Origin: Bacteroidota bacterium
Lineage (GTDB): Bacteria; Bacteroidota; Bacteroidia; Bacteroidales; ML635J-15
Reading direction: 5' to 3'
DNA: 64,000 nucleotides
NCBI GenBank assembly: GCA_029564465.1
Contig: JAKQPY010000056.1
Location: forward strand, 886-64,885
In this document: in pieces, positions 4,611-41,408 of the stretch
Layout: every line of letters starts with the position of its first letter
Numbering within the stretch: the stretch's first letter is position 1
Made by a program: the position numbers and the translations under genes
Notes under the pieces: model-generated
What the model saw: the letters and a program-made list of their open reading frames with translations, nothing else
What the model was told of the DNA's origin: nothing
The model's database searches: none

Positions 4611-4623
4611 CGAAAATCAAGGA

Positions 4624-5421: not shown

Positions 5422-5738
5422 TCGTTGGTATAGGTCATTCTTTCTCTAAGTTTTACTTGATATTCGGCAGTTTACCGGTTGCCAAGCCGGTCGCCGAGCG
5501 GAGTCGAGATGCCCGGCTTGGTGTTCGGCCCGGCTCCGTCCTCCACCCTTCATTGAATTTGAGAAACGAAAATGAAACCACCCGTCATTGCGAATTTGAG
5601 GAACGAAAATGAAGCAATCTGTATTCGACGGGTGGTATTAAAAATGACAACATAGTTTCGGTATGTCACACCGGGCACCTCGGCTCCGCTCGGCGACCGG
5701 CTTGGCAGCTATCGTGATTGAGCCGGGGATTAATCGTT
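5413..5738. mobile_element. Putative MITE-like structured insertion (about 298 bp) flanked by a 14-bp direct duplication GGGGATTAATCGTT
   Basis: The same 14-mer occurs at 5413-5426 and 5725-5738, and each copy carries one gene's stop codon. The interior has 28-bp inverted arms (5481-5508 vs 5678-5706, one mismatch). It also has an inner 10-bp inverted repeat (5577-5586 vs 5627-5636) and a ~27-bp direct repeat (5551-5577 vs 5586-5614). No ORF is present. Confidence 0.5.
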
Positions 5739-22967: not shown

Positions 22968-22989
22968 ATTCTGTAAATTGCATGTTATA

Positions 22990-23021
22990 CAGGCAACGGA
23001 CTTCCGTTGCCTGTGTTTTTT
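22990..23021 (+). terminator. Rho-independent terminator after the 1267-aa gene
   Basis: Perfect stem CAGGCAACGGA (22990-23000) pairs with TCCGTTGCCTG (23003-23013), followed by TGTTTTTTG. Confidence 0.8.
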
Positions 23022-23109
23022 GTGTAAACCTCTAATTGTTAATAAATAGTGAGATGTTTAATTTGAAATGAAAATTCATAGTAATAATTTTGAAAAAATA
23101 ATTTTGACA

Positions 23110-23238
23110 ATGAAAAAAAGTATCTTGATTGTTGCCGCTGTTTTATTTCTTTCCGCAGTACTTTATTCCTGCAAAGGAACACAGGATTGTCCTGCCTATA
23201 GTAAAGCAGAAAGACCCCAGGTGGAAAGCAGGGCATGA
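23110..23238 (+). CDS. Small (42-aa) putative lipoprotein, below the ORF-track cutoff
   Basis: My translation is MKKSILIVAAVLFLSAVLYSCKGTQDCPAYSKAERPQVESRA. It has a signal peptide with lipobox-like LYSC. The opposite-strand 69-aa track ORF looks spurious. Confidence 0.45.
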   Translation: MKKSILIVAAVLFLSAVLYSCKGTQDCPAYSKAERPQVESRA

Positions 23239-23281
23239 TTTGCCTCAAAATAAATTCGCTCGGGTAACGTTATAATTTTAT

Positions 23282-23289
23282 TATATTTG
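23282..23289 (+). promoter_or_regulatory. -7 promoter motif TATATTTG
   Basis: Matches TAnnTTTG and lies 23 nt upstream of the ATG at 23312. Confidence 0.4.
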
Positions 23290-23311
23290 TTACGTCAGAA
23301 GCATTTTGTGT

Positions 23312-24106
23312 ATGAATATTTCGTTGAGGTTCATTCTTTTGTTATTGTTGCTGTTTGTCCTGAGTGGATTTGTTTATGCTCAGGGTGAAATTGAATTTGA
23401 ACGCGAACCTGATAATTATAACGAAAATTCGTTTGGCGCAAAATTGAATTCCAATGGCTGGGGCCTCGATTATCGCTTTTCGCAGCGAATAACCTATCGC
23501 TCACGCTATTTTTACGAGGCAGGCTTTGATTATGTGAAAGATGCCAAAGAAATAAAAGTAATTAACCCATATTTTAATCAGCAACGAAAATTCGTTTTTG
23601 GAAAAATTCACTCTTTTCAGACAATAAAAGCGGGTATGGGCTACAACCGTTTATTGGTTGAAAAACGCGACAGGGGAAGCATTGCAATTAATGCTAATTT
23701 CAGTGCGGGCGGAATTTTAGGGATAGCAAAACCCATATACTATGAGTTGGTTGACAGCACCAAGGTGGTGGGCGATATTCAGTATTATTACACGAATATT
23801 CACCGGCTCGATATTCATAAATATAACCCAACCGACGTGGTAGGCAAGGCCTCCTTTTTCGATGGTTTAAGCGAAACGAAATTTATTCCGGGTATTTTCG
23901 TGAAAGCTGCCTTGAATTTTGATTTCAGCCGTAATGTGATGAAGAGTAACCTTATTGAAACCGGCATTAATTGCGATTTTTACTTTAATGAAGTTGAAAT
24001 TATGGCGGAAAACCCGAAAAGCTTGTTTTTATCAATTTATGTATCATATAGGTTTGGGTCCAAGTACAACGCCAATCTTAGCCGTGAGGCACGAAAAGAA
24101 AACTAA
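23312..24106 (+). CDS. Hypothetical secreted / outer-membrane protein
   Basis: The track start at 23306 is TTG, and I prefer the ATG at 23312 (MNISLRFILLLLLLFVLSGFVYAQ, a signal peptide). The sequence is beta-rich with no family recognised. Confidence 0.6.
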   Translation: MNISLRFILLLLLLFVLSGFVYAQGEIEFEREPDNYNENSFGAKLNSNGWGLDYRFSQRITYRSRYFYEAGFDYVKDAKEIKVINPYFNQQRKFVFGKIHSFQTIKAGMGYNRLLVEKRDRGSIAINANFSAGGILGIAKPIYYELVDSTKVVGDIQYYYTNIHRLDIHKYNPTDVVGKASFFDGLSETKFIPGIFVKAALNFDFSRNVMKSNLIETGINCDFYFNEVEIMAENPKSLFLSIYVSYRFGSKYNANLSREARKEN

Positions 24107-24211
24107 TGTTTTTTCTAATGTTAATTTTTTGTTTTAAGAAAAATCATTTATATTTAGAGGTTTAAAAGAAGTTCGGTTGAATTGAAATATTATTTATGTA
24201 AATAGTTTATT

Positions 24212-27157
24212 ATGAGAAAGTTAACTTTACTTGTATTGTTAGTGTCCGCCATGGGTGCGGCAGTTTTAACAGCTGTTATTTCGCAAAGAAATGCCAAATC
24301 AGTGTATGTTCCGCAGTCTGATGATACTGTTTTGGCGAATAATGGTTTTTCGGGAGCCGCAAAATGGATTTTCGAAAGGCAGGCAAACCTCGAAACAGGA
24401 ATGATTAATCCTTTAGCCATTGAGAATGCAGCAAGGCAGGTTGGCAGGATGAAGTCTTCGAAGAATTCTTTAAACCTGAACTGGGAATTTGCAGGCCCTT
24501 CGAATATTGGAGGCAGGTGCAGGGCTATTCAAATTGATAAAACCAACCCCGATATTCTATATGTGGGCGGTGTTTCGGGTGGACTGTGGAAGTCAACAAC
24601 CGGAGGAACAAGTTGGGTTCAGGTTAAATATGCCGGTGATGCTGAAACCGGAACTATTCCCAATCTGAATATCAGCAGTATTTGCCAAACCAGCAACGGT
24701 GATATTTATTTCGGAACAGGCGAATTATTCGCAAATCCTTATGGTAGCGGTAATACCGGTTTTCAGGGAGCCGGTATCTGGAAATCAACCGATGGTGTGA
24801 CTTTTTCACGACTCGCATCAACCTGGTCGGATGCCACCAGCAAAAACACTTTTGTGTTTGTAAACCGTCTCGTGGCTCATCCTACACAGGCCAATACCTT
24901 ATATGCAGCAACCAAGCGTGGTTTAATGGTTACTACCGATGGAGGTGAAACCTGGACCAATCCAATACACAACGTGGCTGATTTCCCCATTACCGAAACC
25001 TGCGGAACCGTGGCAATAAGCAGCGATGGAACCCATATCATTGTTGACCTTGGTGCACAGGTATATGTTTCGCACAACAGCGGTACCACCGAATCGTGGG
25101 TAAAAGTTACCGGCAGCAACGAAGGTAATCTTCCTACTACTTCTATCAGAACTGAACTGGCGATTGCTCCTTCCGATAAAAATATTATGTACGCCCAAAC
25201 AACCAAAAGCGACAGGAGCCTCTTAAATATTTATCGTTCGACCGACGGAGGTCTTACATGGTCTATTATCGGTCCTGGTGGTAGTGCAACATTTAATCCA
25301 TTGGGTGAGCAAGGCGACTACGACAATGTTATCGCAGTGTATCCCGATGATGCCAATTCAATTATTGTAGGCGGACAATATAGTTTATGGAAATGGGGAC
25401 TTACAACGGGTTGGGATATGCTCACCATGTGGTCGGTAGATCAGAATAGCCCAATGTATGTACATGCCGACCAGCACGAAATTAAATTCCATCCTACAAA
25501 CCCCGATATTGTTTACTGCGGAAGTGATGGTGGAATACATCGTTCGATTAATGGTGGTACCTATTGGACAACGCTGAATAAAAATTTCGGAGTTACCCAG
25601 TTCTATGCAATTGGACACAACGGAACGAATAAATTGATTGGTGGCACACAAGACAACGGTACTTTATATATTGACCCCGATCGTACGGTTACCACGGGGC
25701 TCGAAAATGAAGCTGTTTCTGTTTCGGGTGGTGATGGAGGTTACAGCGAAATTTCACAGATAGAACCCTCCATTATGTTCAGTACAATATATTATGGATC
25801 TTTGTATCGTTCCGAAGATACTGGAGAAACCATGGCTTCGTTTTACAATACCCGCTTGGAAAATAGTGCAAAACCCGGTGATGAAACCCAGGGACATCCT
25901 TTTGTAACTCCCATTGCCTTATGGGAAAGTTTCAACGATGTTAATTCTATCGAAACGGTTAGTTTGATTGCTAACCGCGACTATGAAGCCGGTGAAACTG
26001 TATTTATCGAAAGCCATATTAAAGATAATTATGTGCGGGTTACCCTTGATGCCCCTGTTGCCCAGTACGATACCATTGTGGCCACCGATCATTACCAGTC
26101 GAGGATGGCTGTTGGCTTCAAAGGCGGAGTGTGGATGACTACCCAGGCTTTAAATTTCAGGGTTACTCCCAACTGGCAGCCTGTGGCCAATTTGCGCAAA
26201 GAAGCCAACGATTACGAAGTTGTTCAATGCATTGAATTCAGCGCCGATGGTGCGTTCATGTATTTTGCAACCAACCGTTACACCAGTGGCGGTTCAAGTT
26301 CTATCCTTTACAGATTAGGCGACTTTAACGAGCATCGTCTCGATAGTGCCCGCGACGCTGATTTCAGTACGTACGAACTTGAATTGGTGCCGATTGCTGT
26401 GTTCGGTAGCCGCACAATTACCGGTATTGGAGTTGATCCAGAATCATCAGGTAATGTAGTTGTTACTTTAGGTAACTACGAAAACAACGATTATATTTAT
26501 TATTCTACCAGTGCCAATGTAGCTCCGGCTGTAACTTCAGGTCCGGGTAGCTTTGTTGCAAAACAAGGAAATCTGCCGGCTATGCCTTGCTATGATGCAT
26601 TAATTCTTTGGAACGATTCACGTAAAGTGCTTGTCGGAACTGAATTTGGTGTATTTGGCACAGCTGATATTACTGCGGCCAATCCGGTTTGGACCGATGA
26701 GAACGGGAACGGACTTGATTATGTTCCGGTATATCACCTACGTCAGCAAATAATTCCGAACGGATGGATGCCCGATATGCAATTCGACAACGGAATCAGA
26801 AATCATGGCTACATTTGGGCTGGCACGCATGGTCGGGGTATCTTTAAAACAAAGACCTATGCAGGCCCGGTTTCGGTCGAAGAAATTAGCACCAATGTAC
26901 CGAAATCAACAATTAACCTTTTCCCGAATCCTGTAAGCGAAAATGCAACAATAAGCTTTACCCTCAACGAGAACACCGATGTTTGTGCTCAGGTGTTCGA
27001 TGTTCAGGGTAAACTGGTTAAAACGTTCAACTGGAAATCGCTTTCTAAAGGAAATCAGCAGAAATCAATTAATTGCAGCGATTTAAAAGATGGTGTGTAC
27101 GTGATTTCGCTTCAGGGTGGATCTGCAAAATCGAGTACCCGTTTTATTAAACGATAA
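24212..27157 (+). CDS. BNR/Asp-box (sortilin/Vps10- or GH74-like) beta-propeller protein with T9SS C-terminal sorting domain
   Basis: 981 aa with a signal peptide. Contains repeated Asp-box-like S.D.G.TW motifs (WKSTTGGTSW, WKSTDGVTF, TTDGGETW, SHNSGTTESW, RSTDGGLTW, RSINGGTYW). The CTD is LFPNPVSENATISF...GVYVISLQGG. Confidence 0.8.
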   Translation: MRKLTLLVLLVSAMGAAVLTAVISQRNAKSVYVPQSDDTVLANNGFSGAAKWIFERQANLETGMINPLAIENAARQVGRMKSSKNSLNLNWEFAGPSNIGGRCRAIQIDKTNPDILYVGGVSGGLWKSTTGGTSWVQVKYAGDAETGTIPNLNISSICQTSNGDIYFGTGELFANPYGSGNTGFQGAGIWKSTDGVTFSRLASTWSDATSKNTFVFVNRLVAHPTQANTLYAATKRGLMVTTDGGETWTNPIHNVADFPITETCGTVAISSDGTHIIVDLGAQVYVSHNSGTTESWVKVTGSNEGNLPTTSIRTELAIAPSDKNIMYAQTTKSDRSLLNIYRSTDGGLTWSIIGPGGSATFNPLGEQGDYDNVIAVYPDDANSIIVGGQYSLWKWGLTTGWDMLTMWSVDQNSPMYVHADQHEIKFHPTNPDIVYCGSDGGIHRSINGGTYWTTLNKNFGVTQFYAIGHNGTNKLIGGTQDNGTLYIDPDRTVTTGLENEAVSVSGGDGGYSEISQIEPSIMFSTIYYGSLYRSEDTGETMASFYNTRLENSAKPGDETQGHPFVTPIALWESFNDVNSIETVSLIANRDYEAGETVFIESHIKDNYVRVTLDAPVAQYDTIVATDHYQSRMAVGFKGGVWMTTQALNFRVTPNWQPVANLRKEANDYEVVQCIEFSADGAFMYFATNRYTSGGSSSILYRLGDFNEHRLDSARDADFSTYELELVPIAVFGSRTITGIGVDPESSGNVVVTLGNYENNDYIYYSTSANVAPAVTSGPGSFVAKQGNLPAMPCYDALILWNDSRKVLVGTEFGVFGTADITAANPVWTDENGNGLDYVPVYHLRQQIIPNGWMPDMQFDNGIRNHGYIWAGTHGRGIFKTKTYAGPVSVEEISTNVPKSTINLFPNPVSENATISFTLNENTDVCAQVFDVQGKLVKTFNWKSLSKGNQQKSINCSDLKDGVYVISLQGGSAKSSTRFIKR

Positions 27158-27174
27158 GGTTTATTCTCTAACCG

Positions 27175-27208
27175 AAAAGGCTTTCGTTGTCGGAAGCCTT
27201 TTTTGTTT
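27175..27208 (+). terminator. Rho-independent terminator after the BNR-repeat gene
   Basis: Stem AAAAGGCTT (27175-27183) pairs with AAGCCTTTT (27194-27202) around a 10-nt loop, with a T-rich tail. Confidence 0.75.
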
Positions 27209-27271
27209 GATTTTATCCCGCCATGTATGCGCTAATCCCCAATTATTGTTTGTGAGTTAGCGTTAATTATA

Positions 27272-27279
27272 TATTTTTG
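27272..27279 (+). promoter_or_regulatory. -7 promoter motif TATTTTTG
   Basis: Matches TAnnTTTG and lies 23 nt upstream of the ATG at 27302. Confidence 0.45.
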
Positions 27280-27301
27280 CAACCTGATTTCTGATGCGAT
27301 T

Positions 27302-28243
27302 ATGGCCTATAAATGGATAGCAAAAGCTGTGGTTCAGAAGGTAATCAGTTTTATGCCTTATCGCGAAAAACTGAATTATCTTTTCCAGCGATATGTTACA
27401 CATGGCGTTGAATTAAACGATATTTATTTTGGCTATAAAATTCAAGCAGCCTCCGACCACGTAAAATATATGCGTAAATATGCACCCGAAGGTATATTGT
27501 GCAATCAGGCTGTGCTTGAGCTGGGCACAGGATGGTATCCTGTTATCCCTATCTCAATGTATCTAAGCGGGGCATTATCGGTTACCTCAATCGATATCAG
27601 GCAGTGGATGAATAAAAAGTCGATTTTAACCTGTATCGACAAATTTATTGAATGGCGCGATTCGGGCAAACTCGATAATTATCTGAAAGTAATTAACGAT
27701 GAGCGATGGAATACCCTAATTGAAATATCTGATCGTCGCGAAGAGCTTACCGAAGAACAAATCTTAGATGTACTTAGGTTCAGGACAATGGTTACCGATG
27801 CGAGGAACACCGGTTTGCCGGCACGCAGTTTCGACTTAATTTGCTCAAACAATACGTTTGAACACATTTATCCCGCAGTTCTAGAAAACATTCTGATAGA
27901 GTTTAAACGCTTACTGAAACCCGGTGGAATAATGAGCCACCACATTGATATGTCCGATCATTTTGCCCATTTCGACACATCGATTACCATTTATAATTTT
28001 CTGAAATTTTCATCGCGGCGATGGAAAACTATTGATAACCGGATACAACCGCAAAACCGCCTGCGTTTTGTCGATTTTAAAGAAATGTATAAAAACCTCG
28101 GGATTCCGGTTACCGAAGAAGTTATTTGGGAGGGCAGCCGCGAACAGCTTAGCTTGTTGAAACTTGCCCCGGAATTTAATCGATACACCCGAGATGAGTT
28201 GGCGGTTTCGCATGCCTATTTGGTGAGTAAATTTCCTGATTAA
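27302..28243 (+). CDS. Class I SAM-dependent methyltransferase
   Basis: 313 aa. Motif I-like VLELGTGWYP and post-motif LKPGGIM are present. Substrate unknown. Confidence 0.7.
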   Translation: MAYKWIAKAVVQKVISFMPYREKLNYLFQRYVTHGVELNDIYFGYKIQAASDHVKYMRKYAPEGILCNQAVLELGTGWYPVIPISMYLSGALSVTSIDIRQWMNKKSILTCIDKFIEWRDSGKLDNYLKVINDERWNTLIEISDRREELTEEQILDVLRFRTMVTDARNTGLPARSFDLICSNNTFEHIYPAVLENILIEFKRLLKPGGIMSHHIDMSDHFAHFDTSITIYNFLKFSSRRWKTIDNRIQPQNRLRFVDFKEMYKNLGIPVTEEVIWEGSREQLSLLKLAPEFNRYTRDELAVSHAYLVSKFPD

Positions 28244-28263
28244 ACAATATAATATTTCATACT

Positions 28264-28632
28264 ATGAAAGGCATTCTGACCATTGTGTTGCTGATATGCT
28301 CCAATGTCTTTATGACACTGGCTTGGTACGGCCATTTAAAATTTGCCGAAATGAAGTGGTTCAGTAAATTGGGTATCGTGTCAATTGTATTGATTAGTTG
28401 GGGCATTGCACTTTTTGAATATTGTTTTCAGGTTCCGGCCAACCGGATTGGTTATGCAGGCAATGGCGGACCTTTCAATATGTTTCAGTTAAAAGTGATA
28501 CAGGAAGTAATTACCCTTCTGGTTTTTACTTTTTTTACCCTTTTGGTTTTTAAAACAGAAACACTGCGAACCAACCACATCATTGGCTTTGTATTTCTAA
28601 TTCTTGCTGTTTATTTTATTTTTAAAAAATAA
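28264..28632 (+). CDS. Small DMT-superfamily membrane protein (DUF486-like)
   Basis: 122 aa with four TM segments. The N-terminus ILTIVLLICSNVFMTLAWYGHLKF is typical of this family. Confidence 0.7.
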   Translation: MKGILTIVLLICSNVFMTLAWYGHLKFAEMKWFSKLGIVSIVLISWGIALFEYCFQVPANRIGYAGNGGPFNMFQLKVIQEVITLLVFTFFTLLVFKTETLRTNHIIGFVFLILAVYFIFKK

Positions 28633-29064
28633 TCAGGCAATAATTTCTCCGTTAATTATTATTTCAAAGCTCAGTTCCATCGCCTTGCGATACACAGCAC
28701 TTACTCCGCAATATTGCTCTTCCGATAATTGTACTGCTCGTTTGACCTTATCGGGTGGTATATTGTTACCGGTTAGCAAATAAATCACTTTCATGGCTGT
28801 ATAATGCTTCGGGTGGTCTTCGGTGAGCACCGATTCAATTTTCACCTGAAAACTGTCGGGGTAAATTCTCATTTTGCGCAAAATAGAGATTACATCCATG
28901 CCCGTACAACCTGCCAAAGCAACCATCATAAGTGGCTTGGGACGGGGTCCCAGATTCTGCCCACCGAATTCTTCCGATGCGTCAATGTTTATTATGTGTC
29001 CGTTTACATGGGACGAGAACGACATGTTTTCGTTCCATTCCAGTACAATAGAGTCCGTAGCCAT
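28633..29064 (-). CDS. OsmC/Ohr family peroxiredoxin-like protein
   Basis: 143 aa. Contains GPRPKPLMMVALAGCTGMDV and EEQYCGVS, the two conserved Cys contexts of the OsmC family. Confidence 0.8.
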   Translation of the reverse strand: MATDSIVLEWNENMSFSSHVNGHIINIDASEEFGGQNLGPRPKPLMMVALAGCTGMDVISILRKMRIYPDSFQVKIESVLTEDHPKHYTAMKVIYLLTGNNIPPDKVKRAVQLSEEQYCGVSAVYRKAMELSFEIIINGEIIA

Positions 29065-29071
29065 ATAAATT

Positions 29072-29887
29072 TTAGTTTTGGTTTTTAATATGAACGTTCA
29101 TTTGGGGATAGGGAATACTAATGCCTTCTTTAAAGAAATTTTTATAAACCTGCTCATTCATTTCATGATAAACGCCCCAGTAATCTTCGGTTTTCACCCA
29201 TACCCGTACCACAATTTCTACTGCACTTTCTTTTAAAGCATTTACAGCAATAAAATGTTCCGGTTCATCCAGTATTCTGCTATCTTTTGCAATCAACCCG
29301 AGCAATACCGCCTTGGCTTTGTCGTATTCGTTGCCATATCCTATCCCAAATGTCCAGTCAACGCGTCGCAGTGGTTCAGTGGTAAAATTGGTCATCGAAC
29401 TGGTGGCCAATCCACCGTTGGGAATGATGATTGTTTTATTGTCGAAGGTGGTAATGATGGTACTAAATATCTGAATTTCTTTCACTATGCCCAAATATCC
29501 CTGTGCCTCGAGTACATCCCCCACTTTAAAAGGCTTCAGCAGTATAATAATTACCCCGCCGGCAAAATTCTGTAGGCTGCCCTGTAAAGCCATACCTATG
29601 GCAAGTCCCGCAGCACCAAGTATGGCAATAAACGAAGTAACCTCGATGCCCACCATGCCCAGAACACTCACAAACAACAGGGTTTTCAAGGCAATATTGG
29701 AGAGGCTGATAAAAAACGTTCTCAATTCCTTATTCGTATTGCGCTTATTCATTACCTTGCGCATCGATCGTGTTACCAGTTTTATAATCCACAGTCCCAA
29801 AACTAGTACAAGAATTGCCCCGAGAACTTTGGGCCCAAAACTGAGGGCGAGATCAATCAGTTTGTCAAAAATTGGTTTTGCATCCAT
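29072..29887 (-). CDS. Small-conductance mechanosensitive channel (MscS family)
   Basis: 271 aa with three N-terminal TM helices, followed by FKVGDVLEAQGYLGIVKEIQIFSTIITTFDNKTIIIPNG, the MscS beta-domain signature. Confidence 0.85.
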   Translation of the reverse strand: MDAKPIFDKLIDLALSFGPKVLGAILVLVLGLWIIKLVTRSMRKVMNKRNTNKELRTFFISLSNIALKTLLFVSVLGMVGIEVTSFIAILGAAGLAIGMALQGSLQNFAGGVIIILLKPFKVGDVLEAQGYLGIVKEIQIFSTIITTFDNKTIIIPNGGLATSSMTNFTTEPLRRVDWTFGIGYGNEYDKAKAVLLGLIAKDSRILDEPEHFIAVNALKESAVEIVVRVWVKTEDYWGVYHEMNEQVYKNFFKEGISIPYPQMNVHIKNQN

Positions 29888-29930
29888 AATTAATAAATTT
29901 TAGAAATAAATTTTTTATATCGTTATTTGG

Positions 29931-31913
29931 TTATCGCAATTTCCAATCATACGCCGAGTTTTCTTTGCGGGCTGTCGGTTTTTGCCGGCCTCCGGTAATG
30001 GTTTCTACTTCCTTAATAGAATAATCTTTTATCTCTGAAACAGTAATATGTCCATCATGGTTCAAATCGGCCTGTTTATTTTGCACCCCATTGATAATTG
30101 TAAAGGTAAATATACCGTTTTTCCATTCGTTCGATTCTATGGCAAAGCCTGTGCCCGCAGCAGCTGCCAATACCATGGTTCCCGTTCCTTTATCGAGTCC
30201 AGCGAACATTTCTTTCATAATGTCGAACGAATTGTATATGCCGGCTCCCGATTTCGAAGGGTTATATTCAATACTGCGGTAGGTGTATTCTTTAACCATG
30301 TTGTTCTGTGCAAGTTGGTTATCAACACTGTCAGTAGCCAAATCAGTAATTTGGATGTCATCGCTAACAGCTTCTTTGTCAACTTCCCCGCTATGGCAGG
30401 CATCTACCAGCAGTAACTTGTGCCTGGCTGGAATACTGTCGAGAAAGGTTTCAATTTCATCGAAAGCTATGCCTTTCAAATCAGGCTTTTCGAAGTCGAT
30501 ATCGCTGGTAGCATAATAAAAATTCTGATCTTCGTTCAGCAAGCCGTGACCCGAAAAGAAAACAATGACCCTGTCGTTGGGTTTTGTGGAAAGAATTTTT
30601 GATTTTAAATTAAAGAAATTTTCACGTGTAGCAGCGCTGTCGAACAATGTATCAATTTCGATGTGCCCAAAGTTTTTGATTATAGATTTGTTTTTTAAAA
30701 ACATACGGGTTAGGTCACGCCCGTCTTTTACGGCGTACTTCAGGTTGATGGCTGGGTCGTGATAATCAGAAACACTAACAACAATAAAATACAGGTTGGG
30801 TTTTTCGGTTTTAACCGGAATATAATCAATTACCAGATTTTCTTTTCTCGACTCGGCTGCATTGCTGTTTATGCATGAAACCTGAATGCTGTTTTTTCCG
30901 AGTATCAGGCTGACCGGTACTGTGAGTTCTATGTTGCCGGTTTGATTACTTCGGTAACTGAGACCATTTCTGCCATATATCGGTACATCGTTTGCCCAGA
31001 TTTGTATTCTGTCGATGTTATATCGGTTGTCCCATGCTTTTATTTTCAGTACAATGCTGTCGTCGGTGGTGCTTAGGGGACATTCCGAAAGATTTGTGAT
31101 TTCAATTTCGGGCGTATGCCATTCCGGCGAAAACATGCTTTCGGAGAAACCTATTTTCTGCAAGCGTTTTTCGTATGCCTTACGATACAAATCGATGGTT
31201 TTTTGGTCAACAAACCCAAGTCTTTCGAGAACGATGTCTGGGCGATTAAACTGTATGTCGAACTGATCGGCTGAATATAAATCATATCCCAGCTTAAAGC
31301 CAATAGCATTCATGTTGTTCTTCGATGTGAGATAATAATTGTCGTCGGTAATAGCTATTTTATCGTTTTTACCAATGGGAATAATGCTGATTATCAGTTC
31401 ACCCGTTGTTGTGTTCCAAAGTTTTACTGACGCATCATCACCGGTTGATGCCACTATGTTCCTGTAAGGATGAAAAGCAATGCAGTTAATCGCGGCAGTA
31501 TGTCCAGTGCATACAGCTTTTTGAACTATTTTATCTTCTGATATCTCGAATAATACAAGATCGTTTTGACTGGAGGCAATGGCCAGCTGATTGCTTTTAT
31601 TATTGAATGTGGCTTGTGTTGCTTCGATTCTATAGGTAAATAGAGATGTGTTTTTATAGAAATCGTACAAATAAATTATGCCAGAACTTAATATAACTCC
31701 GACTGAATCGTTGCACATCACCGCTTTATTGGCTTTGAAAGGTAGTGATATGCTGCTTTGATAAATTTTCTTATTGTTGCTAACCAGCCAATAGCAAATG
31801 CTGTCGGTACCATCAAAACTGACAAAAACCGTATCGGAAATAAACAATACGTCAGTTACCTGATTTGCGTGATGAATCAAAGTTTTTTTCCATGGTTTCG
31901 CAATATTGTTCAC
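29931..31913 (-). CDS. WD40 blades + beta-sandwich + caspase-like (peptidase C14) domain protein; probable 3' part of a frameshift-split gene
   Basis: 660 aa from a GTG start. WD40 blade: GHTAAINCIAFHPYRNIVASTGDDASVKLWN. C14 core: NLYFIVVSVSDY, the His context VIVFFSGHG and the Cys context KLLLVDACHSGE. The C-terminus has EF-hand-like DLNHDGHITVSEIKDY...GGRQKP. The frame is open and WD40-like (GCNSKGSLFAAGYENGIITV) upstream to 32030 with no start codon. Confidence 0.85.
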   Translation of the reverse strand: MNNIAKPWKKTLIHHANQVTDVLFISDTVFVSFDGTDSICYWLVSNNKKIYQSSISLPFKANKAVMCNDSVGVILSSGIIYLYDFYKNTSLFTYRIEATQATFNNKSNQLAIASSQNDLVLFEISEDKIVQKAVCTGHTAAINCIAFHPYRNIVASTGDDASVKLWNTTTGELIISIIPIGKNDKIAITDDNYYLTSKNNMNAIGFKLGYDLYSADQFDIQFNRPDIVLERLGFVDQKTIDLYRKAYEKRLQKIGFSESMFSPEWHTPEIEITNLSECPLSTTDDSIVLKIKAWDNRYNIDRIQIWANDVPIYGRNGLSYRSNQTGNIELTVPVSLILGKNSIQVSCINSNAAESRKENLVIDYIPVKTEKPNLYFIVVSVSDYHDPAINLKYAVKDGRDLTRMFLKNKSIIKNFGHIEIDTLFDSAATRENFFNLKSKILSTKPNDRVIVFFSGHGLLNEDQNFYYATSDIDFEKPDLKGIAFDEIETFLDSIPARHKLLLVDACHSGEVDKEAVSDDIQITDLATDSVDNQLAQNNMVKEYTYRSIEYNPSKSGAGIYNSFDIMKEMFAGLDKGTGTMVLAAAAGTGFAIESNEWKNGIFTFTIINGVQNKQADLNHDGHITVSEIKDYSIKEVETITGGRQKPTARKENSAYDWKLR

Positions 31914-31929
31914 TGTAATGATACCGTTT

Positions 31930-33045
31930 TCATAACCGGCTGCAAAAAGGCTCCCCTTCGAATTGCAACCTGTGCAGCTTATCGGGTTGGGGGGGGGACA
32001 ACGGAAATAACCCCAGAACTTTTTCGTACATTAAGTTTCTGAATTTTCGATATACAGAATTGGTCTCGGTTATTTTTAGGTATTGTTCGCTCTTCGACTT
32101 GATGATGCGGTTGTCTTCGCCGGCTGAAAAATAGCTGAGCGTATCGGGTAGCGAAGAAACCGAAACAATACCATGTTTATGGACACGGGTAGTTGTCGAT
32201 TGTAGGTCAGCACTGTACAGGTCGATGGTTTTAATGTCGCCCAGTTCGTTTCCTAACATCAAATAGCGTCCCGATGCATCAAAATTAATGGAACGGTTTC
32301 GAAACGACTTGGCAGCAAGCCGTTTTTCTTCGAAAAGCTTATGAGTGTTCCAAATAATTATGGATCGGTCAGAACTCGCTGATGCAAAATTTGTTTCATC
32401 AGGGTTAAAAACTATGTCGTTCACATCTGAATTGTGCCGGTTCAGATAGCTGAGTTTCTTACCCGAATTGCTGCGTATTTTTTTTCCGTTATCGGCACTA
32501 TATAAATATATTTTACCATCGCTATTGGCCCCCAGCAGTAAATTGTTTTTTTCGGAAATACCCGTAGCATTAAAAACATCGGTGAAGTATTCACACGACC
32601 GTTTGTATTTTGTTTTGTTGGTTCCAGTCTCCCTGTTGATGAGTTTATTCCCTTCGGCAGTAACTACTAAATAATTTGCTACATGGCATTGATTCCTAAT
32701 TCTGGTTTTCTGAAGAACTATGGTGCTGTCTTTTGTTTTTAGGGTTCCAATATCCCAAACTTTTACCAATCCCTGATTGCCAATTATCAATCGTCGGTTG
32801 TTGTCGGTAAAGTACATCGATTTTACTTCTTGGTCAAATAACAGCGAACACATTTGTTTCCCAAGCAACACATTCCATACAATTATTTTTTTGTCGCTGC
32901 CATAGCTGGCCAGTAATTTACCATCGGTTGAATAGCACAGCAATTCAATGCTACCTGTATGACCGCTTTGCACAATCAAATCTACTGGTTGAGCCAGCAG
33001 CAGAACCGGCATAATGAAGAGAAGTATTATCAGAGGCAGCTTCAT
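31930..33045 (-). CDS. Signal-peptide WD40 beta-propeller protein; probable 5' part of the split WD40-caspase gene
   Basis: 371 aa with signal peptide MKLPLIILLFIMPVLLLAQ. Has multiple WD40 blades (GHTGSIELLCYSTDGKLLASYGSDKKIIVWN; HNSDVNDIVFNPDETNFASASSDRSIIIWN). The last 19 aa after the C9 tract (QPDKLHRLQFEGEPFCSRL) look out of frame. Confidence 0.8.
   Translation of the reverse strand: MKLPLIILLFIMPVLLLAQPVDLIVQSGHTGSIELLCYSTDGKLLASYGSDKKIIVWNVLLGKQMCSLLFDQEVKSMYFTDNNRRLIIGNQGLVKVWDIGTLKTKDSTIVLQKTRIRNQCHVANYLVVTAEGNKLINRETGTNKTKYKRSCEYFTDVFNATGISEKNNLLLGANSDGKIYLYSADNGKKIRSNSGKKLSYLNRHNSDVNDIVFNPDETNFASASSDRSIIIWNTHKLFEEKRLAAKSFRNRSINFDASGRYLMLGNELGDIKTIDLYSADLQSTTTRVHKHGIVSVSSLPDTLSYFSAGEDNRIIKSKSEQYLKITETNSVYRKFRNLMYEKVLGLFPLSPPQPDKLHRLQFEGEPFCSRL
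31989..31997. repeat. G9 (coding-strand C9) homopolymer at the junction of the two WD40/caspase ORFs
   Basis: I counted nine consecutive G at 31989-31997. Removing one base (C8), or adding two (C11), joins the reading frame of ORF 31930-33045 to that of ORF 29931-32030. Confidence 0.95.
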
Positions 33046-33047
33046 AA

Positions 33048-34100
33048 CTATAGGCTAAGTCGGTAGTAAAATTTCAGGGGATTATTTATCACAATGTTCC
33101 CCGATGCATCGGTGTATCGCACATAAAAATCGGGGCGAAGGTAAAAACCGTTGTAAAAATTCAGATTACGTTTTACTTTCAGATGGATGCGGTACAAATG
33201 CACGTTTTTCTGTAATATTCGGTCGAGCGATGCTATTATCAACGGGCCTTTATTTTCCATTTCGGTGTAGAAAAACGAACTGGTTTCCATGAGAAAGCCT
33301 CCGGTTCTTGAACAAATATCAGCAAACAGGGGTGCATGGTATCCAATCGATATAATGTTAATGCTGATGTTCCGGTTGAGTGCACTGTCAATTAGCTTAT
33401 TCGCATTTAACCCATAAGAATCATCAATGTTGTATGTGTAAACGGTAACGAAACGTTGTTCATTTACAGCAAAAGTATCTATGTATCGCATCATGCTCAT
33501 GCAAGCATCATAGATGTTGGAACTTCCGGATAGCTCTTCGGTATTTATTTCGGATTCCATAATTAGCTTTTCATGATATGTGCCTCCGAAAGGATTTCCA
33601 GTGCTGTCGGTAAAAATTTTATAATTGTTAATTGTGCTGCTGTTACGCGCAAAATAAGCAATCGACACCTGATTAAGATTGTTCCTACTGCTTTCAGTAA
33701 AGAAACGGTTCACAGCCCGGACTCTGAAATTAAAAGCATCGAGGTATAGGGGCGATTCGCTTTGGTTAATCAGCAAAATGTTAGAGTAGGGTAGAGAATT
33801 GTCAACAAATAGGCGCTCAATACTATCGATTTCGAAAAAAACACTACTTGTGCTTTCGATGTGAAATGCTGAATCGGGAATTAAAGTAAAATCCTTACAA
33901 TCTTCAGTAATAGCAGCCACATCTATTTCGAGCATCATCTCGTTGTTGGTTTTCCATTCAAGCTGTGTGCCCATAACAAATGCTGTCGGCAAACCCGGTG
34001 TTTTTCTTGGTTCAGGGGCACCGCGATCACAGGAACCGAAATAAATGGCTATGGAAGTGCATCCAATCAGTATTATAATATTTCTGAAAACGGTTCTCAT
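33048..34100 (-). CDS. Lipoprotein with vWA-like domain (degenerate MIDAS)
   Basis: 350 aa with lipobox AIYFGSC. The central region has a vWA-like strand/helix pattern: ILLINQSES in place of DxSxS, then SNIYDACMSMMRYI, FVTVYTYNID and ISINIISIGYH...ADICSRTGGF. The call rests on pattern resemblance only. Confidence 0.5.
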   Translation of the reverse strand: MRTVFRNIIILIGCTSIAIYFGSCDRGAPEPRKTPGLPTAFVMGTQLEWKTNNEMMLEIDVAAITEDCKDFTLIPDSAFHIESTSSVFFEIDSIERLFVDNSLPYSNILLINQSESPLYLDAFNFRVRAVNRFFTESSRNNLNQVSIAYFARNSSTINNYKIFTDSTGNPFGGTYHEKLIMESEINTEELSGSSNIYDACMSMMRYIDTFAVNEQRFVTVYTYNIDDSYGLNANKLIDSALNRNISINIISIGYHAPLFADICSRTGGFLMETSSFFYTEMENKGPLIIASLDRILQKNVHLYRIHLKVKRNLNFYNGFYLRPDFYVRYTDASGNIVINNPLKFYYRLSL

Positions 34101-34816
34101 TAATAATATATAAAGCTGTGTTTCTTCATTTTCTGAAACGACAAGGTTTCGTTGTAATGAAACGAAATGCTGTAAGTTGAAACATCCAGACGGTTTGCTT
34201 CACTGTCGATTCTTTTTTCGAAACGTACCGAAATCATGGTTTTGTTGATATTCCAACCGATTCCCCCGATTATTCTCCAATATGCCTTATTGTTGTATAC
34301 AATTCCATATAACTCGTGTATGTCGCTGTATCGATACCCCCAACCTGCATCGTTCCACACCGAGCCATCTTCGATATTCGTGTTTGCAAACACATAACAT
34401 CCTCCGGCATAAAGCGATATGAAATTTGTACCGCTGGTAATCTTCATTCCTAGGAAAACAGGCGTTTCCAGTGCTGTTTCATATACAGTCAGAGTTTGTT
34501 TGCTCCCAAGAAAACTAAGAGTTAGGTTACTTGCCCGCATCGAAGGACTTAGCTCGGTACCCATAAAAAATCTGGCATATTCCAGTTGAAAATATAAACC
34601 CAACTGACCGCCAAAAATCGGGCGGTGCGATTTACTCCCTTTCTCGGTGACCGTTCCGAAAACATTGTATGAGTAGATTGGGAAAATATAATCATCCTGA
34701 AATTTGGTTTCTCCCCAAAAAGTGAATCCTATATGTTGCCCCATACTGAAACGCTGTGCCTGTAATCCCAGGCAAAAAGAGGAGAGAAATAATATTGTTA
34801 GCGCAAATCTCACCAT
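34100..34816 (-). CDS. Small signal-peptide protein, outer-membrane beta-barrel candidate
   Basis: 238 aa with signal peptide MVRFALTILFLSSFCLGLQAQ. Shows alternating hydrophobic/aromatic strands and an aromatic C-terminus (...HSFIYY). Overlaps the downstream gene by 1 nt. Confidence 0.5.
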   Translation of the reverse strand: MVRFALTILFLSSFCLGLQAQRFSMGQHIGFTFWGETKFQDDYIFPIYSYNVFGTVTEKGSKSHRPIFGGQLGLYFQLEYARFFMGTELSPSMRASNLTLSFLGSKQTLTVYETALETPVFLGMKITSGTNFISLYAGGCYVFANTNIEDGSVWNDAGWGYRYSDIHELYGIVYNNKAYWRIIGGIGWNINKTMISVRFEKRIDSEANRLDVSTYSISFHYNETLSFQKMKKHSFIYY

Positions 34817-35484
34817 TTTCGGGGCCTGAATGAATAATTAATTTGGAAAAAAAGGAGCGCGTCATCAAAATCCTGAAAATTGTCTCGATTTCTGACAGGC
34901 CAGAATTCATAGGCTTCCTGCATGGTTCCTTGTAAACCAATATTAAAAGCCAGTTTATCGATACGCACCTGAATCAGATGAAACCGCATATACAGCCTGT
35001 AATAATCCGACTGTAAATCATCTTCAAACATCAGTTCAATTTTATTTATGAAGTTGACATAACCCCACCAAAGTCCGCTTTTATGTCCGACAAACACCTT
35101 TGCTTTATGACACCGGTTGGGAACGAATTCGTAGCCTATACCGTAGTAAACTCCATAACCGAAGTTATTCACCGATTTAAAGAAATCGGAATGTGATTGC
35201 TGCGTGCACATGAATCGGCTGATATCGATACCAAAACCATAGTTATAGCGGCCTCCGCCGAGATTCCCCGATGTTTCGGAACCTTCTTCCGGTTTCGAAT
35301 CGAGGCTTACTATAGCATTCAGGTCTATTTCGAATACAGCTTTCCTGTTGTAGTCAATCATGCGATTATCGTATCGAAAAAACTCTTTCCCATCCAGTAG
35401 AATCGATTGTTGCGCAATGGAATTGCTAATACCGACAACCAGTATCAATGTTACAAGAAATGTTATGTAAGAGTATTTTTTCAT
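34810..35484 (-). CDS. Small signal-peptide protein, outer-membrane beta-barrel candidate (first gene of the operon)
   Basis: Trimmed to Met33 (MKKYSYITFLVTLILVVGISNSIAQ), giving 224 aa. Gly/Tyr-rich strands (GGGRYNYGFGIDIS, FGYGVYYGIGYEF) and C-terminus ...NYSFRPRKW. Overlaps the next gene by 7 nt. Confidence 0.5.
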   Translation of the reverse strand: MKKYSYITFLVTLILVVGISNSIAQQSILLDGKEFFRYDNRMIDYNRKAVFEIDLNAIVSLDSKPEEGSETSGNLGGGRYNYGFGIDISRFMCTQQSHSDFFKSVNNFGYGVYYGIGYEFVPNRCHKAKVFVGHKSGLWWGYVNFINKIELMFEDDLQSDYYRLYMRFHLIQVRIDKLAFNIGLQGTMQEAYEFWPVRNRDNFQDFDDALLFFQINYSFRPRKW

Positions 35485-35702
35485 GCACTTTCCACAGGTA
35501 AAAATAATAATTAATCCGATTGCCCATTCATCCCATACTCCGAATCGATATTGTTTCGTTATGTCCGGCAAATTGTGCACAAAACCAGGTCATACAACCG
35601 ACTTACGAATTTCTATTCATTTTATAATTTTTATCAACAGAGGGTTATCACTTATCGATATTTTTATTATTTTTACCTGAAATTAATTAAAAACACACAA
35701 TT

Positions 35703-37430
35703 ATGAGAAAAAATTTACTTCTGGTGGCACTATTGTTTGCAGCCGCTCTGGCTGGTGCACAAACCACCATTTTCAGCGAAAACTTCGACGGTCTTACCGC
35801 CGGACAAACAGTGAATTCCCAGCAACCTCTGTTTTATCCCTGGACAGGTCAGGTTGCTGAAAATGGCTACGTGAGTGATGTTCAATCGCATTCAGCGAGC
35901 AATTCAATGAAAATCATCAACAATAATGATATGGTTTTCAATTTTGGCGATAAAACCAGCGGTGAATTTGATGTAAACTTCTGGGTTTATGTCGTTGCGG
36001 GTCAGGGAGGTTATTTCAATGTGGAACATGACTTCGGTACTTCCTGGGCATTTGCATTCTATTTCAGGACTGATGGTACCTGCGACCTGATTCAGGGTGG
36101 TGTAACAACCAATTTTGCTTATGCTGCCGATACCTGGATGCAGGTAGAACTGAATATTAATCTCGAAACCGATCAGGCAACAGCCTGGGTTGATGGCACC
36201 GAAATTCTGACCTGGACATTCTCGAACGAAGAAGATGCTGCCGGTGGACAAAACAAACTGGATGTTATCAATTTTTACGGACTTCATCAGACAAGCACCG
36301 GTGTAAACAATTCGGAATATTATGTTGATGATTTCGAATATATCGAAATTCAGAGTGGCATTGCTCCGGCAACTATCGATGTTGAAACAGCCACCATTAC
36401 TACCGATGGCACAACCACTGAATTGCTCAACATTGCCAATGTGGGCGAACTCGAAATGAATTACAAGGCATATCCTGTGTTTCAGGATCCTGCACTCACT
36501 TCAAACCTGATTGACGGACAGATGAATTATGACCTTGATATTGTAACTGCCATTGGCTGGCAGGAAAGCTTCGAAGTGGATGTTGCAGTACGTATGGGAA
36601 CCGACATTACATCACAGCATATTGGACAGGTGATTCACTATATTACTTTCTTTATTAACGACCTTCCTGCTACCGAAAACATCACGGTGTATGTCTGGTC
36701 GAAAGGCGAATATACCCAACCCGGAACTTCAACCGTGTTGTTCGAACAGGTAATGACCCCAACAGCCCAATCGTGGAATGCCGTTACACTTGATAACCCC
36801 ATTGTTATTACCGGCGACGAACTGTGGATTGGATATCGTTTTACCGGACCTGCCGGTGGTTTTACTTTGGGTGTTGATGACCAACCTGTTGTTCCGGGAA
36901 CCTGCTACCTGCGTACCGGTCCTGTTTGGACTGAATTTACCGGTGTTGAAGGAACCGGAAACTTCTGCATCCGTGCCGAAGTTGAAGGTGCCGGATGGCC
37001 CGTATGGCTTAATGTTGCTCCTGGTAGTGGTACTTTGGCCGCCGGTGCAAATACCGACCTGAACCTCAGTTTTAACACTGCCGGTCTGGTGAACGGAACT
37101 TACTATGCTGATGTGGTAATCGGAGCCAACGATCCCGATCAGCAATGGACAGAAGTTCCTGTTGAACTCACATATTTTGTTGGTATCGACAATCAGACAT
37201 CGGTTGGAGTAATGACTTACCCGAACCCGACACGCGATTTTGTAAACATTGTAACCGACAATCAGATTGAATCGGTAAACGTGTTTAATACAGCCGGTCA
37301 ATGTGTGATTTCTCTTAACGTGAATGCTGCCAGCACCTCTATCGACATAAGCAGCCTTTCAACAGGAAACTATATCATCGAAGTGAGTGTTGCAGGTGCA
37401 ACTACCCGCAGCCAGCTTGTAGTTGAGTAG
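35703..37430 (+). CDS. Secreted LamG/jelly-roll-like protein with T9SS C-terminal sorting domain
   Basis: 575 aa with signal peptide MRKNLLLVALLFAAALAGAQ. The N-terminal domain is concanavalin-like (FSENFDG...YYVDDFEY). The CTD is TYPNPTRDFVNIV...GNYIIEVSVAG. Confidence 0.75.
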   Translation: MRKNLLLVALLFAAALAGAQTTIFSENFDGLTAGQTVNSQQPLFYPWTGQVAENGYVSDVQSHSASNSMKIINNNDMVFNFGDKTSGEFDVNFWVYVVAGQGGYFNVEHDFGTSWAFAFYFRTDGTCDLIQGGVTTNFAYAADTWMQVELNINLETDQATAWVDGTEILTWTFSNEEDAAGGQNKLDVINFYGLHQTSTGVNNSEYYVDDFEYIEIQSGIAPATIDVETATITTDGTTTELLNIANVGELEMNYKAYPVFQDPALTSNLIDGQMNYDLDIVTAIGWQESFEVDVAVRMGTDITSQHIGQVIHYITFFINDLPATENITVYVWSKGEYTQPGTSTVLFEQVMTPTAQSWNAVTLDNPIVITGDELWIGYRFTGPAGGFTLGVDDQPVVPGTCYLRTGPVWTEFTGVEGTGNFCIRAEVEGAGWPVWLNVAPGSGTLAAGANTDLNLSFNTAGLVNGTYYADVVIGANDPDQQWTEVPVELTYFVGIDNQTSVGVMTYPNPTRDFVNIVTDNQIESVNVFNTAGQCVISLNVNAASTSIDISSLSTGNYIIEVSVAGATTRSQLVVE

Positions 37431-37440
37431 GACTTAAAAC

Positions 37441-37480
37441 AAATAAGAAAAGCCGTTTTTACGGCTTTTCTTATTTATAT
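37441..37480 (+). terminator. Rho-independent terminator
   Basis: Perfect 16-bp stem AAATAAGAAAAGCCGT (37441-37456) pairs with ACGGCTTTTCTTATTT (37461-37476) around loop TTTT. Confidence 0.8.
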
Positions 37481-37491
37481 GGCATTGAAAA

Positions 37492-38151
37492 ATGAAAATA
37501 CCCACATTTGTTACACTTGCCTTGCTGTTTATTGGTGAATTGGCTTCAGGACAAAAACTGCTCCCTGGCAAACTTACCTATTGTTCTGGAGAGACGAAAG
37601 ATGCATTTATCGAAATACCCTATATATGCAACGCAAAGAAAATCAGATTTAAAGAGACTGAAAATTCTGATTTGTTAGTGGTTTCTTCATCGGAGCTTCA
37701 ATCAATTTCAGTTCTTTCGACCACTGGAGAGCAATATGTTTTTGAATATGTGCTAATTCGTAACTTATTAACGAAGAAGGCGAAAAAAAGGTTTTGGTCA
37801 TTCGTTTTAGTGTCCGGTATTAATACACTTTATATTGTTCCATGGTTTTACGATATTAATAAGCAAGGTGAAATTGTATTTATTGTCCAGACTATGAATG
37901 GAATTGAAGATTTTGGCTTTTATTTAAAGAAACAAAACTCTGATGTTGCAGAATATTTTTGTCATGGACCCATCCCTGGAAATACGGACCTTCACCGTAT
38001 TCATGATGGTGTGTTTGTTAAAGAGTGTAATAGAATGCTGGCAGATTGTCCTGAACTGGTTTCCAGAATAAAGAACTATGAATTGCGATACGAAAAAATG
38101 TTGGAAGTTATTAGACAATATAATTTATGTACGTCGTTGCCGAATCAGTAA
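37492..38151 (+). CDS. Hypothetical secreted protein
   Basis: 219 aa with signal peptide MKIPTFVTLALLFIGELASGQ. No recognisable motif. Confidence 0.55.
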   Translation: MKIPTFVTLALLFIGELASGQKLLPGKLTYCSGETKDAFIEIPYICNAKKIRFKETENSDLLVVSSSELQSISVLSTTGEQYVFEYVLIRNLLTKKAKKRFWSFVLVSGINTLYIVPWFYDINKQGEIVFIVQTMNGIEDFGFYLKKQNSDVAEYFCHGPIPGNTDLHRIHDGVFVKECNRMLADCPELVSRIKNYELRYEKMLEVIRQYNLCTSLPNQ

Positions 38152-38430
38152 CCACTTACCAATAATATGATTCTTTGAATAATATTTAATGAAAAATATG
38201 ACTTTTTTCATTGCAATTGCAGAGTCAACGAATTGATAAAGTGTAGTTTTGATTATCCATTCCATTTATAGCAAAGTAGCCCCCACTGCGAAAATTGTTT
38301 CTTTTTGATTTGACATTAATGGATTACCTTGATTTACAGATAAGTTATTTACAATACCGTCAGTTGAAATTACACCCTAGAACTACTGCATATTTTTATT
38401 AATTTTACACCCAATTTTAAAACCGAAATT

Positions 38431-39174
38431 ATGGAATTGCTAAAAGATAAAGTAGTAGTAGTAACCGGAGCAGCACGGGGAATCGGACGTGCCATTGCAT
38501 TGGGTGTGGCCCGTCAGGGTGCGCAGGTAGCATTTACCGATCTGAAAGCCGACGATAATTTTAATAGCCTGCTTGCCGAACTTAAGGCCATGGGAATCAA
38601 AGCAGCCGGATACGAATCGAATGCAGCAGTTCTCGCTGATGCCGAAAAACTGGTAACCGATGTTACCAATGATTTTGGACGGATTGACGTACTGGTAAAC
38701 AATGCCGGTATTACCCGCGATACCTTGCTCATGCGGATGACCGAGGAACAGTGGGATATGGTCATAAATGTGAATCTGAAGTCGGTTTTCAATCTCACTA
38801 AGGCTGTGCAGCGCCCTATGCTGAAACAGCGCAGTGGCTCAATTGTCAATGTGAGTTCGGTTGTTGGTGTTAACGGGAATGCCGGACAGGCAAACTATGC
38901 TGCTTCTAAAGCCGGCATTATAGGTTTCACCAAATCAGTAGCCAAGGAACTCGGTCCGCGTAATATTCGTTGCAATGCGATTGCCCCTGGTTTCATCGAA
39001 ACCGAAATGACTGCAGTGTTGCCCGAAGAGGTAAGGGCAGCCTGGAATGAAAAAATCCCGCTCCGCAGGGCAGGTAAACCCGAAGATGTTGCCGATGTCG
39101 TTGTGTTTCTCGGATCGGATTTGTCTTCGTATGTTACAGGTCAGACCATCAGCATTTGCGGCGGTATGATTTAA
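38431..39174 (+). CDS. fabG: 3-oxoacyl-[acyl-carrier-protein] reductase
   Basis: 247 aa SDR. Has VVTGAARGIGRAIA (TGxxxGIG), NNAG, the catalytic S...YAASKAG (YxxxK) context and PGFIETEM. Confidence 0.9.
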   Translation: MELLKDKVVVVTGAARGIGRAIALGVARQGAQVAFTDLKADDNFNSLLAELKAMGIKAAGYESNAAVLADAEKLVTDVTNDFGRIDVLVNNAGITRDTLLMRMTEEQWDMVINVNLKSVFNLTKAVQRPMLKQRSGSIVNVSSVVGVNGNAGQANYAASKAGIIGFTKSVAKELGPRNIRCNAIAPGFIETEMTAVLPEEVRAAWNEKIPLRRAGKPEDVADVVVFLGSDLSSYVTGQTISICGGMI

Positions 39175-39185
39175 ACTTTTATTAA

Positions 39186-41261: not shown

Positions 41262-41368
41262 GTCAAAGGTCTAAATAACTGTAATTTAATTATATAGCGA
41301 ATAAATGCTTTGTCTCGTATTTAATGTAAATTATTTGAATATAATTTATATTTATAAAGTAATTCAGT

Positions 41369-41376
41369 TACATTTG
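41369..41376 (+). promoter_or_regulatory. -7 promoter motif TACATTTG upstream of the polyamine cluster
   Basis: Matches TAnnTTTG and lies 33 nt upstream of the ATG at 41409. Confidence 0.45.
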
Positions 41377-41408
41377 CAAAATAATAAACAAGTAAAGCGA
41401 TTAGATAA

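Follow-up and report, generated by a model that had tools for sequence, protein, structure and literature searches.

The split WD40-caspase gene

The sequence analysed here (the window) is a stretch of 64,000 nucleotides on contig JAKQPY010000056.1 (positions 886 to 64,885, forward strand) of the metagenome-assembled genome (MAG) GCA_029564465.1, a member of the Bacteroidales, lineage ML635J-15. Its minus strand carries a gene for a predicted exported protein with WD40 repeats and a caspase-like Peptidase C14 domain, and this gene is interrupted by a run of nine C on the coding strand (C9), which is the only G/C run of at least 7 in the 64-kb window. The ninth C of the tract is a frameshifting insertion. 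The features of the locus are listed in Table 1.

At the tract the coding strand reads ...CCG TTG TCC CCC CCC CAA CCC GAT AAG..., and the nine C are positions 31997-31989. The open reading frame (ORF) of 371 amino acids (aa), 33045..31930 on the minus strand, crosses the tract and stops 19 codons past it (QPDKLHRLQFEGEPFCSRL*). The second ORF, of 660 aa, begins at GTG 31913 (residue 378 of the intact protein), and its frame extends upstream without a stop as far as a TAA at 32033-32031; no ATG, GTG or TTG was found in this frame between the TAA and GTG 31913, and the GTG is the sole start candidate. When the tract length was varied, C8 gave one frame of 1037 aa and C11 one frame of 1038 aa, and both C9 and C10 were interrupted. 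The peptide over the junction is ...VLGLFPLSPPNPISCTGCNSK in the intact frame and ...LSPPQPDKLHR in the truncated frame. The original prediction, which was made from the sequence alone, had described a C9 run separating a WD40 ORF from a caspase ORF, an open stretch free of start codons upstream of the GTG, and the fusion of the two frames into a protein of about 1037 aa at C8 or C11. We reread the sequence and its ORFs and repeated the tract-length test, and every one of these statements was accurate.

Orthologues, paralogues and origin of the run

The two ORFs had been read as one split gene, and alignment with homologues bears this out, the orthologues being single fused proteins. A search with the fused reading retrieved P0001 (90% identity, 1037 aa, 100% coverage) and P0002 (64% identity, 1046 aa), each a single protein, together with about 12 further single proteins of 1012-1068 aa at 31-40% identity. 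Several of the matches are named "caspase family protein" and come from Bacteroidia or Bacteroidota MAGs. Homologues were present in 15 of the 41 genomes searched. All but two are open frames of 1010-1283 aa; the two are the split gene of the window itself and one paralogue in genome G002, which an in-frame TAG interrupts (833 aa). P0001 matches the fused reading in length and aligned with it without indels. The fused junction LFPLSPPNPISCTG aligns with LFPLLPPNPICCTG of P0001 and MYPLQPPFTVSALG of P0002, and L349 and P352 are nearly invariant in this alignment. Exact look-up of the fused 1037-aa protein gave no whole-length record; the identical record that exists is P0125, an 844-aa partial protein of another NCBI MAG (GCA_035369565.1), which agrees with the fused reading at every residue over the junction.

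There are three intact paralogues in the window's own genome, on contigs C46 and C270. The genus carries several WD40-caspase paralogues per genome, with up to six matches. The interrupted paralogue of G002, a genome of the same genus, is one of three in tandem (G002:C99:20804-22354) and may be a pseudogene. A further homologue, 34% identical, lies at L012:3983-6918 in the long-read assembly of MAG Fred_18-Q3-R57-64_BAT3C.256. It matches over 4001-6918, its longest ORF is 801 aa (3983-6388), and it looks interrupted, possibly by a long-read homopolymer error.

The locus of P0001 (L002) reads TTG TTG CCC CCC AAC, that is a C6 run with exactly one gap relative to the window, and the locus of P0002 (L003) reads TTA CAG CCG CCT and has no run. 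It means that the conserved feature is Pro-Pro and not the homopolymer. By these comparisons the tract is young. Two substitutions in this species (TTG to TCC, Leu to Ser) extended the ancestral C6 of the Pro-Pro codons to C8, and replication slippage in one strain lineage probably added the ninth C.

Distribution of the C8 and C9 alleles

For 20 public DNA runs (X1-X20), the Logan contigs were aligned to positions 31700-32300 of the window. The runs are sludge, wastewater, digester, biofilm or aquatic metagenomes, except X3 and X4, which bear coded organism labels. The C8 allele, with one G fewer at 31989 and the gene intact, was present in 16 of the 20 runs (X2-5, X7-11, X13-15, X17-20). Two runs had C9, X1 (word depth 3.2) and X16 (word depth 3.8), and in the remaining two, X6 and X12, the contigs end at the tract. 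C9 was also found in a 42-kb Joint Genome Institute (JGI) contig (3300010346) and in MAG GCA_035417665.1, which makes three assemblies with the window's own. GCA_035369565.1 has C8, with an identical protein. A variable-gap pattern for the tract had no match in a set of JGI metagenome contigs from which records close to the window's genome are probably absent.

Strains were compared with the window over 20 kb (22001-42000). X16 showed 0 differences and X1 showed 5, including 28542/28543, where X1 agrees with the C8 strains; X1 and X16 therefore differ from each other at single-nucleotide polymorphisms (SNPs). The C8 runs were more distant: 26 differences for X5, about 41 for X7, about 67 for X3, about 89 for X4, more than 100 for X11 and about 146 for X2. 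Thus C9 occurs only on the lineage of the window, X16 and X1 (0-5 differences per 20 kb), and the six more divergent strains tested all have C8. The tract is the only indel in 20 kb between the window and X5 or X11. Because C9 recurs in two runs of different SNP haplotype and in three assemblies, and no other indel separates the window from X5 or X11, it is a real allele, passed on within one near-clonal lineage, and not an assembly error.

The same comparison gave two observations outside the tract. In X2, X3 and X4, about 25 SNPs are packed within 29573-29837 (265 bp), in an mscS-like gene on the minus strand, and the adjoining WD40-caspase gene of these runs is almost identical to that of the window. 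This SNP mosaic suggests homologous recombination between strains. An apparent join of 28615-28633 to 39372-39389 in X4, X7 and X11, with 13 other letters between, would imply a 10.7-kb deletion; it is spurious, since each side is only a match of about 18 nt in low-complexity A/T-rich sequence.

Nature of the C9 allele

We consider it likely that C9 is a genuine, very recent loss-of-function frameshift allele of a single-copy gene, arisen at an incidental slippery run. In the best reading, the tract is a mutational hot spot by chance and did not evolve as a switch. Within the gene, only the tract and one synonymous SNP (31041, Ile) set the C8 strain X3 apart from the window, and other changes there relative to a C8 strain number 0-1. 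The frameshift is thus very recent and without secondary decay. Recent pseudogenisation, one of the explanations offered by the original prediction, fits best with the single near-clonal C9 lineage and the near absence of other changes.

The C9 allele would leave an exportable fragment with a complete first propeller. A downstream product from GTG 31913 would be without a signal peptide and without the first strands of propeller 2. The downstream frame lacks a signal peptide, holds propeller 2 only in part and has nothing but a GTG to start from. A useful form of the caspase is therefore most probably not produced, and C9 would most probably abolish the function of the exported protease. The gene may be dispensable in this lineage, perhaps because of the three paralogues. 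Most strains of the species retain C8 and the intact gene. The run could in principle revert to C8, and +1 slippage of tRNA-Pro on CCC-C, or slippage of RNA polymerase, might yield traces of full-length protein.

Several points weigh against a fixed loss. Both C9 runs are shallow, with word depth 3-4. At the tract, the contigs of X6, X8, X12 and X15 break or branch, which is compatible with mixed lengths but also with low depth. Logan contigs keep the majority allele only, and within-sample length heterogeneity lies outside their reach. It is not fully certain that X1, X16, the JGI contig and the third-party annotation (TPA) MAG are independent, and some of them may share a sample. C9 also persists in samples dated 2016 and 2017 without further decay, as a reversible switch would show too.

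The strongest alternative is a contingency locus, in which the run would change reversibly and at high frequency between C8 (ON, exported WD40-caspase) and C9 (OFF), resulting in mixed expression of a cell-envelope protease. In its favour, the run is of slippage-prone length and toggles the frame of an ORF, its length is polymorphic between natural populations, the product is predicted to be exported, the OFF allele carries no secondary mutations, and the contig breaks at the tract would also agree with it. However, C9 was seen in one near-clonal lineage only and never on another background, so that recurrent switching was not observed among the six divergent strains over 20 kb, and the run is not conserved in orthologues, being C6 at 90% protein identity and absent at 64%. 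It interrupts the gene at codon 350 of 1037 instead of close to the 5' end, and both mutS1 (916 bits) and mutL (502 bits) are intact. The genome shows no enrichment of such tracts either. The 3.48-Mb MAG has 13 G/C runs of at least 8 and 4 of at least 9, against about 55 and about 13 expected under a first-order Markov model; runs of at least 8 are about four-fold rarer than expected, and thus are avoided, not enriched. We therefore regard it as rather unlikely, though the best of the alternatives, that this mismatch-repair-proficient environmental Bacteroidales has a newly evolved reversible C8/C9 ON/OFF switch for an exported caspase-like protease.

Among the 13 runs of at least 8, the tract is the one clear case of a long ORF being interrupted (699 codons are open at n, 1040 at n-1). 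The other G/C8 runs of the MAG, C59:13235, C172:18929 and C185:38232 among them, keep the frame of the ORFs of 297-796 aa in which they lie. With no second run that splits a long ORF and with long runs depleted, a genome-wide repertoire of G/C-tract switches is ruled out. No ORF of at least 100 aa covers any of the three remaining G/C9 runs (G000:C74:26270-26278, G000:C93:16756-16764 and G000:C124:7603-7611); they are probably intergenic, one of them between convergent genes.

That C9 is an artefact of sequencing or assembly at a low-coverage homopolymer, the organism having C8 in truth, is very improbable. Homopolymers are error-prone, the word depth of the C9 runs is low and the MAG is in 289 contigs. 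But the independent Logan assemblies of X1 and X16, two SNP haplotypes, each gave C9, and so did the JGI assembly and the TPA MAG; neither X1 nor X16 yielded a C8 contig, whereas the sixteen runs of similar depth gave C8. A general homopolymer error is excluded by the absence of any further indel over the 20 kb against X5 or X11 and by the other G/C8 runs being in frame. Assembly error, which the original prediction had kept as one of its explanations, is thus ruled out by the recurrence of C9 in two haplotypes and three assemblies with no other indel.

Slightly less probable still is a functional rescue of C9, in which either kind of slippage, of the ribosome or of RNA polymerase, would give enough full-length protein to keep the gene from being really off. 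The tRNA-Pro shift would lead to ...SPPNP..., and a +1 shift on UCC CCC CCC C|AA would give exactly the protein sequence of C8. The persistence of the allele without decay would agree with rescue as well. Unprogrammed slippage, however, is usually about 1% or less. Neither a stimulatory element nor conservation of the shift site in orthologues was found; a conserved programmed frameshift is ruled out, as the orthologues aligned across the junction stay in one frame and none is shifted. Four RNA runs contained identical pieces of 190-230 nt elsewhere in the gene, and no RNA contig in them spans the tract. These short contigs suggest transcription of the gene in wastewater communities. Other homopolymer indels are documented as being rescued through transcriptional slippage or frameshifting (PMC5009743; tssM of Citrobacter rodentium, PMC4256274), but the documented transcriptional cases are mostly at A/T runs.

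That the locus holds two natural genes, for a WD40 protein and a separately initiated WD40-caspase, as the gene calls of the public record have it (products of 360/371 aa and 660 aa), is next to impossible and is ruled out by the orthologues being single proteins: the arrangement was found in no relative, no orthologue examined has an independent caspase start, neither the 19-codon tail nor the GTG start is conserved in the homologue alignment, and the second product would, according to the model, start inside a propeller blade.

Protein architecture

An AlphaFold2 model was made of P0001, the 90% orthologue, with a mean predicted local distance difference test (pLDDT) score of 79 and a predicted template modelling (pTM) score of 0.75. 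The order of signal peptide, WD40 repeats, beta-sandwich and caspase, proposed from the sequence, is found in this model, and is refined to two propellers with a helical module after them (Table 1).

Table 1. Features of the WD40-caspase locus in the window; residues are those of the intact (C8) protein.
Feature	Positions	Strand	Basis or content
Whole gene	29931..33045	-	Predicted exported tandem-WD40 / beta-sandwich / caspase (Peptidase C14) protein, 1037 aa at C8
Sec signal peptide, residues 1-18	32992..33045	-	12-sequence alignment; model helix 2-17
Beta-propeller 1, residues 22-327	32065..32982	-	Pfam WD40/propeller families, AlphaFold2 strands, Foldseek
Inter-propeller helix (330-340) and low-confidence linker to 354, holding the tract	31983..32058	-	pLDDT <50 at 335-350
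Homopolymer C9	31989..31997	- (G9 on +)	C8 form codes Ser350-Pro351-Pro352 (TCC CCC CCC)
Beta-propeller 2, residues 355-573	31326..31982	-	Pfam, AlphaFold2 strands, Foldseek
Helical module 575-631 and beta-sandwich 646-741	30822..31322	-	AlphaFold2 model
Caspase-like Peptidase C14 domain, residues 751-1037, alpha/beta	29934..30794	-	PF00656, model
5' fragment, 371 aa	31930..33045	-	Signal peptide, complete propeller 1, helix, 19 out-of-frame residues
19 out-of-frame codons and stop	31930..31988	-	Product of the +1 insertion; no orthologue counterpart
3' frame, 699 codons	29931..32030	-	Open from TAA 32033-32031
Three tightly packed upstream genes, 350, 238 and 256 aa	33048..35580	-	Intact; no known family

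Directly after the signal peptide (...LLLA|QP...) stands Gln19, which is invariant in the 12-sequence alignment. In Bacteroidetes the "Q-rule" describes an N-terminal pyroglutamate on exported substrates of signal peptidase I, and the invariant Gln19 would fit this rule. The 360-aa product of the public record, P0126, begins at Met12 and thus cuts into the signal peptide. A C-terminal domain of the type IX secretion system was not detected in the family scan of the protein.

WD40 or propeller families of Pfam match in each half of the split gene, PF00400 above the cut-off in both. Foldseek matches of the model are tandem double propellers (Aip1 1nr0, Utp21 4nsx, Apaf-1 3sfz), with E values down to 1e-28; with the full-length model the propellers dominate, and nothing specific was returned for the caspase part. 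The segment "..ISCTGCNSKGSLFAAGYENGIITV.." upstream of the GTG had been taken for a WD40 blade. It does form the first strands of propeller 2, but the tract itself, which was included in that assignment, lies in the inter-propeller linker of the model and not in the blade.

The 3' half matches PF00656 with 34.9 bits (cut-off 21.4, E 1.7e-8). The catalytic residues are His833 (CAC, 30548-30546, in SGHG) and Cys883 (TGC, 30398-30396, in DACHSGE); both are present in the window and invariant in 12 and in 19 homologues. By its sequence the protein is thus assigned to Peptidase C14, with a predicted intact His-Cys dyad. Against NCBIfam NF047832 (caspase, EACC1-associated type) it scored 73.1 bits with a cut-off of 140, which indicates a related subfamily and not membership. 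A disordered insert of about 50 residues (885-936; 30239-30394, minus strand; pLDDT <50) follows directly after Cys883 and is poorly conserved and variable in length among homologues. Caspases have the inter-subunit (p20/p10) linker at such a place after the catalytic Cys, and the modelled insert is a candidate autoprocessing or regulatory loop of that kind.

Gene context

The WD40-caspase gene is the last of a tight four-gene array on the minus strand. Pfam and NCBIfam scans of the three upstream proteins gave no family. Called genes of matching size are directly upstream in the orthologous loci L002, L003, L023 and L024; homology was compared for the 350-aa protein only, which is 92% identical in L002. 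The three upstream genes are probably operon partners, and together with the WD40-caspase gene (33048-35580 plus the WD40-caspase) they probably make up an uncharacterised conserved four-gene envelope module.

Comparison with known systems

Contingency loci with G/C tracts in Campylobacter jejuni, Neisseria, Haemophilus and Helicobacter undergo translational phase variation by slipped-strand mispairing. Their tracts are conserved, occur many times in a genome, usually lie close to the 5' end, and are of mixed length within single cultures. The present locus is similar in having a G/C run of 8-9 in the ORF of an exported protein, a one-base toggle and both lengths in nature. It is different in that the run arose within this species and is placed one third into the gene, with the OFF length confined to one lineage, and in that such runs are depleted genome-wide.

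Homopolymer-tract indels of the Mycobacterium tuberculosis complex have been described as "phase variants", and their recurrence across the phylogeny was demonstrated (bioRxiv 10.1101/2022.06.10.495637; PMC10334774). The likeness is in the frameshift at a short incidental homopolymer, in an organism not known for phase variation, recognised by comparison of many genomes; here, in contrast, one origin is visible. In Citrobacter rodentium, a frameshifted tssM with a poly-A tract was shown experimentally to be rescued by transcriptional slippage (PMC4256274), and such "savior" correction of indels has been reviewed (PMC5009743). As with tssM, the gene of a large envelope-associated protein is broken at a homopolymer that could be read through by slippage, but the tract here is poly-C and its rescue hypothetical.

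WD40 is the commonest partner domain of prokaryotic metacaspases, found in 10.9% of sequences (Asplund-Samuelsson et al. 2012, PMC3501461). N-terminal helices, maybe signal peptides, are common among them, and metacaspase-NACHT-WD40 is a widespread architecture (PMC3501461). The protein of the window resembles WD40-linked metacaspases and orthocaspases in joining a Peptidase C14 domain with a His-Cys dyad to WD40 repeats. It differs in its order of signal peptide, two N-terminal propellers, helical module, beta-sandwich and C-terminal caspase without NACHT or NTPase, and in its conserved operon with three proteins of unknown family. This exported two-propeller, beta-sandwich and caspase order with a conserved operon is uncharacterised.

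Biological meaning

If the tract were a switch, sludge populations could hedge by producing a cell-envelope WD40-caspase complex or going without it, e.g. under phage or predator pressure. The locus would then be one of the first simple-sequence-repeat phase-variable loci that metagenomes alone have documented for an uncultured free-living bacterium. Should per-read data show more than one length within a haplotype, it would become a tractable case of phase variation outside host-associated pathogens.

As a recent frameshift, which we prefer, the locus is a clean natural case of a slippage allele just after its origin, with both alleles circulating in wastewater communities. It would mean that the bacterium can, at least in some settings, do without the exported WD40-caspase. 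In this species-representative MAG the two annotated ORFs are best handled as a single disrupted gene, whose intact form is the 1037-aa protein of the sister strains, and neither a "stand-alone" 660-aa WD40-caspase nor a 371-aa WD40 protein should be counted in analyses of the bacterial caspase family.

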